Sequence record: PX907400.1
Strand: one strand, 5' to 3'
DNA length: 43,319 nt
Source of the DNA: a phage
Position numbers and translations under genes: made by a program. Shown one piece after another: positions 31,181 to 34,026 of the stretch. Below the pieces are notes generated by a model. That model did not search any database. It had not been told where the DNA came from and was given only the letters and a program-made list of their open reading frames with translations. Numbering within the stretch: position 1 is the first letter of the stretch; each line of letters begins with the position of its first letter.

Positions 31181-31461
31181 CCCCGGAAGGCAAAATACAG
31201 AAATACGCAAAAGAGCGATTCGAGGCCATTGGTGGCCTCGTTCGTAAGCTCTCCTACGAAGGACGTTCGGGTGCCCCTGACCTGCTGGTAATTCTCCCCG
31301 GCGGCATAGTCTGGTTCGTCGAGGTGAAGAAAGACGAAAACACGAAGCCAGACCCGCACCAGATACGTGAGCACGAGCGGATGCGTAAACGTGGTGCGAA
31401 TGTTTTTGTCGTTGGTTCGTTTAAACAGGTTGACGACCTAATAGCGAGCTATTATAGTTAG
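31177..31461 (+). CDS. VRR-NUC domain nuclease
   Basis: PDLLVILPGG...FVEVKK PD-(D/E)XK core. Confidence 0.6.
   Translation: MTPEGKIQKYAKERFEAIGGLVRKLSYEGRSGAPDLLVILPGGIVWFVEVKKDENTKPDPHQIREHERMRKRGANVFVVGSFKQVDDLIASYYS
31430..31458 (+). promoter_or_regulatory. sigma70 promoter (-35 TTGACG, 17 nt, -10 TATAGT) with operator, embedded in the 3' end of the VRR-NUC gene
   Basis: Same architecture as 25028 and 27724. Confidence 0.5.
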
Positions 31462-31491
31462 TCATACACCAACAATATAAGGAATTGAGAA

Positions 31492-31683
31492 ATGAAACAC
31501 GAATATGACCGCAAACCAGCACGTGACATCGTACCTGGCGATATGATTTTCAACGTTAAGACCCGCCACCCTGTTGCCGTTGATACGGTGTACGTCGAGT
31601 CAAACGGTAAACTGGTTATCGAAGATGTAACCGGTAACGTTACGGCGTTCGGTCGTAAAGAGTTAGTTCTGGTGGCGAAATGA
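31492..31683 (+). CDS. hypothetical protein
   Basis: 63 aa, AAGGAA Shine-Dalgarno. Confidence 0.45.
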   Translation: MKHEYDRKPARDIVPGDMIFNVKTRHPVAVDTVYVESNGKLVIEDVTGNVTAFGRKELVLVAK

Positions 31684-32609
31684 ACTATTACAATGAATGG
31701 GATAAAGGCGCAGCCGCGTGGCTGCGTGAGTTGATAAAACAGGGACACATACCTTTTGGAGTTGTAGATGAAAGAAGCATTACCGAAGTTAAGCCAGAAG
31801 ACCTTGACGGGTTCACCCAGTGTCATTTTTTCGCGGGTATCGGCGGCTGGCCTCTCGCGCTCAGACTTGCGGGAGTTTCGGAGGATACGCCTCTCTGGAC
31901 GGGAAGCCCGCCTTGCCAACCGTTTAGCACGGCAGGAAAACAACTCGGACAGTTCGACCCGAGACACCTCGCGCCGGTCTTCCTCGACCTCATCAGCGAG
32001 TGCCGCCCTCCAGTCATCTTTGGGGAGCAGGTTGCGGCAGCAATTGCAAAATCGTGGATGTGCGATTTACAAGCTCACCTGGAAGGAGAAGACTACGCCG
32101 TCGGGTTTGCTGTACTCCCAGCTTGTAGCGTCGGCGCACCGCACAAAAGAGAACGACTCTTCTTTGGCGCGCACAGACTGGCCCACACCGGCGGTATCAC
32201 TGATAACAAACGACGTGAACATGCGCAGCACAGACGGCAGGACGAAACCGAACAAACTGGGATGGGCCGCTGCGATGGCGGCTTGGCCTACTCCGACAGC
32301 GAACGACTACAGGGGGAGCGGAGAGACAGTGATTCGCAAGGACGGGAAGGACAGGACATTCGACAGGCTGGACTACTCGACGGAGCAGGGTCTGAAAATA
32401 ACACAACCAATCCGCATCACGGCTTCTGGTCAGATACTGACTGGCTCGGATGCCGGGATGGAAAATTCAGGCCAGTTGAACCCGGCGCATTCCCGCTGGC
32501 TAATGGGATACCCGCCAGAGTGGGACGATTGCGCGGTTATGGCAATGCCATCGTCCCGCAAGTAGCCGCTGAATTTATAAAGGCATTCATGGGGGCGGTA
32601 AATGAGTAA
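31680..32609 (+). CDS. DNA (cytosine-5) methyltransferase, apparently frame-disrupted
   Basis: Frame 0 has motifs FFAGIGG, PCQPFS, GEQV, HKRERLFFG and C-terminal YGNAIVPQV; the overlapping +1 ORF 31768..32565 has WPTP repeats and LNPAHSRWLMGYPPEW. Confidence 0.6.
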   Translation: MNYYNEWDKGAAAWLRELIKQGHIPFGVVDERSITEVKPEDLDGFTQCHFFAGIGGWPLALRLAGVSEDTPLWTGSPPCQPFSTAGKQLGQFDPRHLAPVFLDLISECRPPVIFGEQVAAAIAKSWMCDLQAHLEGEDYAVGFAVLPACSVGAPHKRERLFFGAHRLAHTGGITDNKRREHAQHRRQDETEQTGMGRCDGGLAYSDSERLQGERRDSDSQGREGQDIRQAGLLDGAGSENNTTNPHHGFWSDTDWLGCRDGKFRPVEPGAFPLANGIPARVGRLRGYGNAIVPQVAAEFIKAFMGAVNE

Positions 32610-34026
32610 GTTTCAAAGGCGCGAATACCAGAAGCTCATGACTTCGTTCATGCTGCGGCACCATCGCTGCAATATCTGGGCGAGCATGGGCAGCGGTAAG
32701 TCGGGGTCAACGTTGTGGGTTCTCAATCGACTGTTCCGTAATGGGCAACTTAATGACGACGACCGAGTGTTAATTCTGGCTCCTTTACGTGTTGCGTCCG
32801 GTACGTGGCCCGCAGAACAGGCACGTTGGAACTTCCCCTGTCTGAGTGTCGTAGACGCAACCGGTTCAGAGAAGCGCCGTATCGCGGCGCTGGAGTCAGA
32901 TGCTAACGTGGTGTGCACAAACTACGAAGTTATCGAGTGGCTTATTGACTACTACGGCAAAGACGACTGGCCTTTCACAGTTATCGTTGCCGATGAGAGC
33001 ACGAAGCTGAAATCGTTCCGTAGCCGTTCTGGGGGTAGCAAGCGGGCAAAGGCGCTTAGCAAGGTAGCATTCGGTAAGGTTAAGCGTTTTATCAACCTGA
33101 CCGGTACACCGTCGCCTAACGGACTTAAGGACCTGTGGGGGCAGAACTGGTTTATAGACGCGGGCGAGCGCCTCGGTTCTTCGTATACAGCGTTCACCGA
33201 CCGCTGGTTCAACTCTGTACAGAAAGGCAAATCGGCGATGGCGCGTGAGTATCACGCCCGCCCGGGTGCGGATACCGAGATTCATCAGAAGATGAAGGAC
33301 ATTAGTCTCACGATTGACGCTGCCGAGTGGTTCGGTTGCGAAGCGCCGATTATCGTACCGGTTGAAATAGACCTGCCGAAGAAAGCACGCCAGGCGTACA
33401 TCGATATGGAGGAGAAGTTATTCGCGGAACTGGAGAGCGGGGAAGTAGAAGCGGCTAACGCCGCAGCGAAGACGTCAAAGTGTTTGCAGATTGCATCCGG
33501 CGCCGTATATGTGTCAGGGCCGGACGGTGAGGCAACGAAAGACTGGGAGAAAGTGCACGACACGAAACTGGATGCGCTGGAGTCAATTGTTGAGGAGTTG
33601 CAGGGTGCGCCGTTACTAGTCGCCTATCAGTTCAAGCACGAACTGGAGCGCATCCTCAAGCGCTTCCCGCAGGCGCAGGCTTTTGCAAAAGGCGCGAAGG
33701 GCAATAAGCAGATGGAAGCGTGGAACCGCGGCGAAATCGAGATTTTGTGCGTCCACCCTGCGTCAGCCGGTCATGGTTTGAATTTACAGGACGGCGGACA
33801 CCATCTGGCGTTCATCTCGCAAGGCTGGAACCTTGAACACTATTTGCAGGTTGTCGAGCGTATAGGCCCTGTCCGCCAGAAACAGGCAGGTCATGAGCGC
33901 CCGGTGTTCCTCTATCACATCGTTGCAAAAGACACGCTGGACGAGGTTGTTGCCGCGCGTACTGACGAGAAGAAATCCGTCCAGGAAGAGTTGCTTAACT
34001 ACATGAAGAGACGAGGTAAGAAATGA
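32602..34026 (+). CDS. SNF2-family (DEAD/DEAH-like) helicase
   Basis: GSGKS P-loop, VIVADEST box, C-terminal helicase motifs (HGLNLQ...QVVERIGPVRQ). Confidence 0.7.
   Translation: MSKFQRREYQKLMTSFMLRHHRCNIWASMGSGKSGSTLWVLNRLFRNGQLNDDDRVLILAPLRVASGTWPAEQARWNFPCLSVVDATGSEKRRIAALESDANVVCTNYEVIEWLIDYYGKDDWPFTVIVADESTKLKSFRSRSGGSKRAKALSKVAFGKVKRFINLTGTPSPNGLKDLWGQNWFIDAGERLGSSYTAFTDRWFNSVQKGKSAMAREYHARPGADTEIHQKMKDISLTIDAAEWFGCEAPIIVPVEIDLPKKARQAYIDMEEKLFAELESGEVEAANAAAKTSKCLQIASGAVYVSGPDGEATKDWEKVHDTKLDALESIVEELQGAPLLVAYQFKHELERILKRFPQAQAFAKGAKGNKQMEAWNRGEIEILCVHPASAGHGLNLQDGGHHLAFISQGWNLEHYLQVVERIGPVRQKQAGHERPVFLYHIVAKDTLDEVVAARTDEKKSVQEELLNYMKRRGKK

Follow-up and report, generated by a model that had tools for sequence, protein, structure and literature searches.

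Two nested reading frames of a phage cytosine-5 methyltransferase locus: a probable two-subunit enzyme

The locus and its two reading frames

The cytosine-5 (C5) DNA methyltransferase locus described here lies at positions 31680-32609 of sequence record PX907400.1, a phage DNA of 43,319 nucleotides (nt), the whole of which is referred to as the window. The genome is that of a Kagunavirus (Guernseyvirinae), and over its segment 31400-32900 it has 97.4% identity with the Escherichia phages K1ind3 and K1ind2. An open reading frame (ORF) of 309 amino acids (aa), here called alpha, encloses a second ORF of 265 aa, beta, in the +1 frame of the same strand, and 798 of alpha's 930 nt (86%) are shared. 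An earlier note, made from the letters of the window, had read the locus as a set of C5-methyltransferase motifs divided between two open frames, with motifs I, IV, VI, VIII and X in frame 0 and two WPTP repeats and a motif-IX-like segment in the +1 ORF 31768..32565. That description is confirmed, and the elements concerned are placed as follows.

31680..32609, plus strand: alpha gene, 309 aa, predicted catalytic large-domain subunit of a C5 DNA methyltransferase; frame-0 ORF
31827-31847, plus strand: motif I, FFAGIGG; frame 0
31908-31928, plus strand: motif IV, PPCQPFS; frame 0
32019-32033, plus strand: motif VI, FGEQV; frame 0
32142-32168, plus strand: motif VIII, HKRERLFFG; frame 0
32538-32564, plus strand: motif X, YGNAIVPQV; frame 0
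31768..32565, plus strand: beta gene, 265 aa, proposed small-domain/recognition subunit; +1-frame ORF wholly within alpha
32179-32190 and 32284-32295, plus strand: the two WPTP repeats; +1 frame
32476-32523, plus strand: motif-IX-like segment, LNPAHSRWLMGYPPEW; +1 frame

The layout is more than chance, since alpha and the +1 segment match protein families (PF00145 and PHROG, below) and the same arrangement recurs in 65 viral and 80 bacterial loci. It is not generally visible in annotation. The GenBank record of K1ind3 lists both ORFs, as a 'putative C-specific methylase' (alpha) and a 'putative Mte8-like protein' (beta), and the K1ind2 record likewise has both, the RefSeq label for each being 'DNA methyltransferase'; no explanation of the name 'Mte8' was found in the literature searched. 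The region 31400-32900 is matched by 467 phage records, and in other records the 309-aa ORF is the sole annotation, so that the warning of the earlier note that a single-ORF annotation conceals the layout was apt: many records show one 'methyltransferase' coding sequence (CDS).

Conservation of the layout

The 65 viral loci that were fetched encode relatives of the frame-0 protein at 43-91% identity. Where the gene is complete, frame 0 carries motifs I, IV, VI and VIII, the +1 frame carries between one and six W(P/A/L)TP repeats with an NP..WLMG motif, and GNAI falls in frame 0 again; frame 0 is open from end to end (264-478 aa), and +1 is open from about codon 20-35 until a few codons short of the frame-0 stop. 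Seven apparent exceptions (L019, L024, L027, L049, L061, L063 and L064) have variant motif IX sequences that the regular expression missed. Nearly all of 80 loci from as many bacterial species share the two-frame layout, their hosts including Proteobacteria, Planctomycetota, Verrucomicrobiota, Acidobacteriota and Desulfovibrio, and the P2-like and lambdoid prophages of E. coli have it as well. A tblastn search finds beta in 231 phage records, among them epsilon15 and phages of Klebsiella, Rhodobacter, Burkholderia and Xanthomonas, almost always underneath one annotated 'methyltransferase' CDS. The layout is identical in hundreds of independent phage and prophage genomes, at protein identities of 41-97%; beta accompanies alpha in every lineage examined and is never free-standing in the loci studied.

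Selection on each frame

The entropy, identity and openness analyses draw on 41 distinct sequences that are related, their counts accordingly not being independent, and whose middle linkers differ widely (33 to 247 codons); entropy and identity were measured without correction for relatedness. Nucleotide entropy by codon position follows the ordinary frame-0 pattern over alpha codons 1-100, with third-position values of 1.0-1.4 over codons 16-100. It falls to 0.6-0.9 at the third position over codons 101-150, which implies a second constraint there, and past alpha codon 165 the entropy pattern of the +1 frame takes over. Pairwise amino-acid identity, taken in ungapped blocks at 5-35% nucleotide divergence, resolves the rest of the gene:

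Middle: beta 0.85, alpha 0.59, third frame 0.59
Just upstream of motif IX: beta 0.70, alpha 0.82, third frame 0.68
Motif IX: beta 0.78, alpha 0.70, third frame 0.63
After motif IX: beta 0.64, alpha 0.91, third frame 0.61

In the middle segment, to judge from these sequence comparisons, there is protein-level constraint on the +1 frame only, and frame 0 drifts like a non-coding frame. This is the opposite of what the earlier note had named as fatal to its reading, namely conservation of the frame-0 middle, with the +1 motifs a coincidence. Constraint on beta sets in at about 31980, and constraint on alpha resumes at about 32421, well before the motif IX of beta. A consensus over 87 unique sequences reads the same nucleotides as gfws.adwl.crdgk.rPvEPgtFPLA.GipaRVGrLRgyGNAI in alpha and as QLNPahSrWLMG.PpEW in beta. 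The frame switches that the earlier note had placed near 32160..32176 and 32529..32538 do not exist as such, because at both ends there is overlap between what is conserved in one frame and what is conserved in the other. The zones are:

31771..31986, plus strand: beta N-terminal leader, about aa 2-73, sequence unconserved and predicted disordered (confidence score pLDDT <50; frame-0 third positions freely variable)
31990..32145, plus strand: beta helix and beta-hairpin module, aa 75-126, ...SAALQSSLGSRLRQQLQNRGCAIYKLTWKEKTTPSGLLYSQLVASAHRT, overprinted on alpha motifs VI-VIII; first dual-constraint zone
32169..32420, plus strand: alpha middle linker, aa 164-247, unconstrained in amino-acid sequence by identity, predicted disordered (pLDDT 25-43), yet kept open; the same DNA encodes the WxTP repeats of beta
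32410..32523, plus strand: beta conserved C-terminal region, aa 215-252, IRITASGQILTGSDAGMENSGQ and LNPAHSRWLMGYPPEW, motif-IX-like; second dual-constraint zone, overlapping the alpha C-terminal region
32421..32588, plus strand: alpha conserved C-terminal region, aa 248-303, GFWSDTDWLGCRDGKFRPVEPGAFPLANGIPARVGRLRGYGNAIVPQVAAEFIKAF, including motif X (consensus of 87 unique sequences; alpha identity 0.82-0.91)

Each frame is also kept open where its amino-acid sequence is free to vary. Frame 0 is without stops through the middle in all 41 sequences, as against about 10% of shuffles that preserve the beta protein, and across the longest linkers it stays open in none of 300 such shuffles; the third frame has stops at the expected rate in the same segment. 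Openness of frame 0 through the middle is needed only if alpha is translated straight through. Conversely, +1 is open over alpha codons 31-112 in 38 of the 41 sequences (about 11% of alpha-synonymous shuffles), the three exceptions having their stop at the very upstream edge.

A start site for beta inside alpha

The beta ORF has its own ribosome-binding site, spelled by codons of alpha:

31758..31770, plus strand: Shine-Dalgarno (SD) sequence GGAG (31758-31761), 6-nt spacer and beta ATG (31768-31770), formed by alpha codons Gly27-Val28-Val29-Asp30

The choice of those codons is biased in the way that an embedded ribosome-binding site predicts, and by this sequence criterion the SD and ATG of beta are selected. 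The Asp codon at the beta ATG is GAT in 22 of 22 sequences of the Kagunavirus/Jerseyvirus clade, compared with 41% elsewhere, and Val29 is GTA in the same 22. (The GTA codon places a +1-frame TAG directly before the beta ATG, as TAGATG at 31765-31770, in 22 of 22.) In a second clade beta starts six codons further downstream, at AGGAG-N8-ATG, and it is the codons of that site that are uniform: Arg is AGG in 18 of 19 sequences (4 of 73 elsewhere), Ser is AGY in 18 of 19 and Asp is GAT in 18 of 19. A TTG at 32032 was considered as the main beta start and rejected: a start there would cut into the helix predicted at beta aa 74-95 and leave the openness upstream of it, and the SD and ATG, unexplained.

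The alpha product

Alpha matches PF00145 over residues 73-170 only (E=3e-17, 63.4 bits with a cut-off of 22), TIGR00675 at 41 bits, which is under its cut-off of 100.65, and phrog_363 from end to end (1.6e-88). By sequence it aligns with M.HhaI at E=4e-8, the catalytic motifs falling opposite M.HhaI residues 77-168. An AlphaFold2 (AF2) model built from 57 close sequences gives the N-domain a pLDDT of 60-85, residues 170-290 a pLDDT of 25-43, and a terminal helix at 293-308; Foldseek aligns it with M.HhaI and M.HaeIII at prob 1.0 over about 170-190 columns. On sequence and model together, the N-domain of alpha is best described as a C5-methyltransferase large domain with the fold and catalytic motifs of M.HhaI and M.HaeIII. 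The Pfam PF00145 model does not extend into the C-terminal part of alpha and detects neither motif IX nor motif X. From motif VIII to motif X the chain is without amino-acid constraint and is predicted to be disordered; a small domain in the same chain is not found.

The N-terminal end has a peculiarity of its own. Within alpha aa 2-56 (31683-31847), the stretch NYYNEWD..AAAWL aligns weakly with M.HhaI residues 37-47, the region of motif II, and motif I (FFAGIGG) comes only at aa 50, after this 'NE.D' motif-II-like element. Because the motif-II-like stretch precedes motif I, the first motifs look permuted (II/III before I) relative to canonical C5-methyltransferases.

The beta product

The +1 segment matches phrog_1008 (1.3e-25) and phrog_31772 (5.6e-28). 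A word-indexed search returns 5647 relatives of beta and an exhaustive one 9440 cluster representatives at E<=1e-3, the best of them being products of +1-frame ORFs with a Ser/Ala-rich N-terminus that comes from reading the catalytic domain out of frame. The AF2 model of beta, built from an 85-sequence alignment, has residues 1-70 disordered, a confident helix at 74-95 and hairpin at 101-123 (pLDDT 84-93), the repeats at low confidence and the C-terminal region at moderate confidence. The helix-hairpin module is the only high-confidence part; it coincides with the first dual-constraint zone, and it is where the tblastn matches of other phages to beta start. This module is probably the element that docks on alpha.

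The tandem WxTP repeats that follow are probably the part that recognises the target. Relatives have anything from 1 to 6 W(P/A/L)TP units in beta, and the length of alpha changes in step with them, from 264 to 478 aa. (Single-linkage clustering of WxTP modules merged 522 of 826 into one family and is uninformative on whether distinct recognition modules have been shuffled.)

Nearest the C-terminus, LNPAHSRWLMGYPPEW fits the pattern of motif IX, which in M.HhaI reads LHPRECARVMGYPDSY, and is nearly invariant among relatives. Since no profile or structure match ties beta to methyltransferases, the assignment as motif IX rests on resemblance of pattern and on analogy with M.EcoHK31I, the two-polypeptide C5-methyltransferase to which we return at the end.

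A proposed heterodimer, and what weighs against it

We consider it highly probable that two genes on the same strand, one nested in the other, here encode the subunits of a single heterodimeric cytosine-5 DNA methyltransferase. A pair of subunits translated separately is not among the three explanations offered by the earlier note, none of which is the best. Alpha would supply the catalytic large domain, with motif I for binding S-adenosylmethionine (AdoMet), motif IV with its catalytic Cys, motifs VI and VIII, and motif X at its C-terminus; at the position of the small domain it would have only a linker of irrelevant sequence that needs to remain open. Beta would be translated independently in the +1 frame from its own SD and ATG at 31768, and would present, after the disordered leader, the probable docking module, the repeats as the probable recognition part, and motif IX. 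That target recognition resides in beta is suggested by the sequence comparisons, because the middle of alpha is without constraint. Alpha and beta would assemble on DNA as the equivalent of a monomeric enzyme such as M.HhaI, and the phage would presumably use it to methylate its own DNA against host restriction, a role assumed on general grounds for phage orphan methyltransferases.

Several observations sit less comfortably with this proposal. The alpha and beta products of this phage are predicted from the sequence, and both AF2 models are of low overall confidence. Beta shows no similarity to solved methyltransferases in phmmer and profile searches of the PDB sequences, no Pfam family was found for it with 85 homologues, an NCBIfam search was negative, and Foldseek with the beta model yields no match to a methyltransferase fold. 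An artificial chimera of alpha N-domain, beta middle and alpha tail does not extend the Pfam/TIGRFAM match to motifs IX and X, and its phrog_116 match gains only about 5 bits. For beta to begin with some 73 residues that are unconstrained and yet kept open is a strange design, and starts further inside beta, such as TTG 32032 after GGGGAG (from motif VI), are possible secondary ones. Finally, the proposed kinship with M.EcoHK31I is drawn from published descriptions of that enzyme (no match of that name appeared in the large protein searches or cluster listings), and the passages on that enzyme in two sources put its predicted target recognition domain (TRD) in alpha (PMC2836561; PMC3404938).

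Other ways to account for the locus

Alpha might by itself be a working methyltransferase and the +1 ORF an overprinted regulator, anti-defence factor or DNA-binding accessory. Such overprinted genes are common in phages, and beta has no statistically supported similarity to characterised methyltransferase domains. We nevertheless judge this improbable: from motif VIII to motif X alpha offers no constrained stretch out of which a small domain, needed to bind and flip the target base, could be built, beta accompanies alpha in every lineage examined, the C-terminal motif of beta matches the motif IX pattern, and the alpha polypeptide of M.EcoHK31I is inactive without its beta.

The recoding that the earlier note offered as one option would take the form of double programmed frameshifting, +1 after motif VIII and -1 before motif X, giving a single chain in the order I-VIII, TRD-IX, X. 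The order of motifs across the two frames does mimic that of a canonical monomeric C5-methyltransferase, the distance from NP..WLMG to GNA is fixed at 62 nt in most relatives, and rare database proteins (P0121, for example) are fusions of the two frames. Such a mechanism has no need of a frame 0 that stays open for 33-247 codons beyond the supposed shift site, nor of a selected beta SD and ATG about 400 nt upstream of it. Beta has a structured module upstream of the shift site and the conserved C-terminal region of alpha begins upstream of the beta motif IX; because the conserved zones of the frames overlap in this way, no single frameshift path uses all of the conserved sequence. Neither frame junction has a slippery heptamer, an in-frame stop or a conserved nucleotide motif, and M.EcoHK31I functions as two separate polypeptides. 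In the fusion proteins the point of joining varies from one to the next and motif X is absent, a picture to be expected of indels or assembly errors. Frameshifting is on these grounds very unlikely.

The fusions deserve description in their own right. Among 267 retrieved proteins, the only single-chain relatives with WxTP in frame with the catalytic domain are six frame fusions: P0121, P0129, P0110, P0139, P0206 and P0153, in which the N-terminus of alpha is joined to beta after motif I, IV or VIII and which all end at the beta stop, without motif X. P0121 is 95% identical to this phage's beta over aa 133-265 and is set apart by a 1-nt change near 32172-32176. All six probably result from indels or errors of assembly.

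That two compensating indels or sequencing errors have broken up a former single-frame methyltransferase, the default expectation for motifs in different frames and the treatment given by the NCBI pipeline to one E. coli prophage copy, is scarcely credible and can be set aside together with the sequencing error and inactivating indels of the earlier note, because the layout holds in the complete viral loci and nearly all of the 80 bacterial ones; it recurs across phyla in genomes sequenced independently, hundreds of them in all, purifying selection acts on each frame where it carries motifs, both frames are actively kept open, and among the best 150 of 9440 beta relatives there is no in-frame version, the six sporadic fusions aside.

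Variants and neighbours

The prophage copy just referred to is in E. coli Ec1117 (L069; NZ_CP126602.1, locus 1063-2232). Its alpha is open throughout and its beta is intact in +1; NCBI has it as two 'incomplete' pseudogene fragments, because only the two ends of alpha resemble known methyltransferases. An MT-A70 methyltransferase next to it is marked as frameshifted.

In two viral loci (L027 and L028; IMGVR_UViG_3300045988_050163 and _074615) alpha reaches 478 aa by an insertion of about 170 codons between 'CRDGKFRPVE' and 'IPARVARLRGYGNAI'. The insertion lies downstream of the beta stop and in +1 encodes an HNH endonuclease (PF01844, 22 bits with a cut-off of 21.4); the alpha frame is open across it, which makes the insertion a third gene nested in the locus. 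A shorter insertion is found at this site in L024. In the viral contigs L017 and L032 frame 0 stops at codon 82 and motif IV (PCQPFS) is in +1, reflecting a 1-nt indel early in alpha that is either real or artefactual and that departs from the conserved layout.

In PX907400.1 the alpha ATG overlaps the stop of an upstream 63-aa ORF (ATGA, 31680-31683), and the ATG of an SNF2-type helicase, at 32602, lies 8 nt ahead of the end of alpha (overlap 32602-32609). VRR-NUC, the small ORF, alpha/beta and the helicase form a tightly coupled block of the replication module.

Significance

If alpha and beta are the two subunits of one enzyme, the locus is a working design and not a pseudogene, a sequencing error or a recoding event, and expressing alpha alone would probably give an inactive protein. 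The main interest then lies in how widespread and how under-annotated the nested beta is, and in an overlap that is unusually long and anciently maintained. Most phage and RefSeq records list alpha by itself or split it into pseudogene fragments; this keeps out of sight the proposed second subunit of an anti-restriction enzyme that is common among phages. The 86% same-strand overlap, kept across bacterial phyla, is also a clean natural system for the study of long-lived overlapping genes: it holds alpha-only, beta-only and doubly constrained zones, and two stretches in which a frame is preserved only as 'open'.

On a wider proposition we are evenly balanced. It is that nested alpha and beta, far from being a curiosity of EcoHK31I, are the standard architecture for a very large family of C5-methyltransferases in phages and prophages across phyla, with at least 9,000 beta clusters at 50% identity, most of them with beta unannotated. 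Recognition would reside in the one to six WxTP repeats of beta, and the 'variable region' of alpha, to which the literature assigns the TRD, would be only a stop-free linker; gain and loss of repeats would retune or multiply specificity, alpha lengthening passively from 264 to 478 aa. Were recognition indeed to sit in the beta repeats, the family would offer methyltransferase specificity on a modular platform.

Comparison with known systems

Genes with programmed frameshifts (prfB, dnaX and the G/GT genes of phage tail chaperones) resemble this locus in having functional sequence in two frames. They differ from it in that the phage locus has no slippery site or stimulator, its zero frame is open over the whole gene and its second frame has its own start.

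The monomeric C5-methyltransferases M.HhaI and M.HaeIII (PF00145) share the fold and motifs of the alpha N-domain, and the two phage frames taken together give their order of motif VIII, recognition region, IX and X; the difference is that in the phage enzyme the small domain is missing from that chain. M.AquI (Karreman & de Waard 1990) is closer, being described in PMC3404938 as a natural two-subunit C5-methyltransferase that is split within the variable region: its two ORFs follow one another, motifs I-VIII belonging to the large subunit and half of the variable region, with motifs IX and X, to the small one. Two subunits are also what is proposed for the phage, in which, however, motif X is in the large subunit and the gene of the small one is nested within that of the large.

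The closest likeness is to M.EcoHK31I of E. coli HK31 (Lee, Kam & Shaw 1995). According to the passages on it in PMC2836561 and PMC3404938, this is a two-polypeptide C5-methyltransferase of which both products are required, and its beta gene is contained wholly within the alpha gene, read in a different frame. Methylation was abolished when the beta starts were removed by silent changes and came back when beta was supplied in trans, and beta associates with alpha through its N-terminal part (PMC2836561; PMC3404938). The phage alpha likewise has motifs I-VIII as well as X but lacks IX; the phage beta ORF is entirely inside alpha, in the +1 frame, and is kept there in relatives; and an N-terminal role in association fits the helix-hairpin module. 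There are differences. EcoHK31I belongs to a restriction-modification pair, whereas the phage gene is an orphan between a VRR-NUC nuclease and a helicase; the TRD is assigned to alpha in the one, and in the other the middle of alpha is unconstrained and the conserved repeats are in beta. Reportedly, the EcoHK31I alpha has 309 aa and its beta 176 aa, and selection in the phage points instead to a beta of 265 aa with its start far upstream. By this comparison the phage locus joins a known, rarely recognised architecture that was first described for E. coli M.EcoHK31I.

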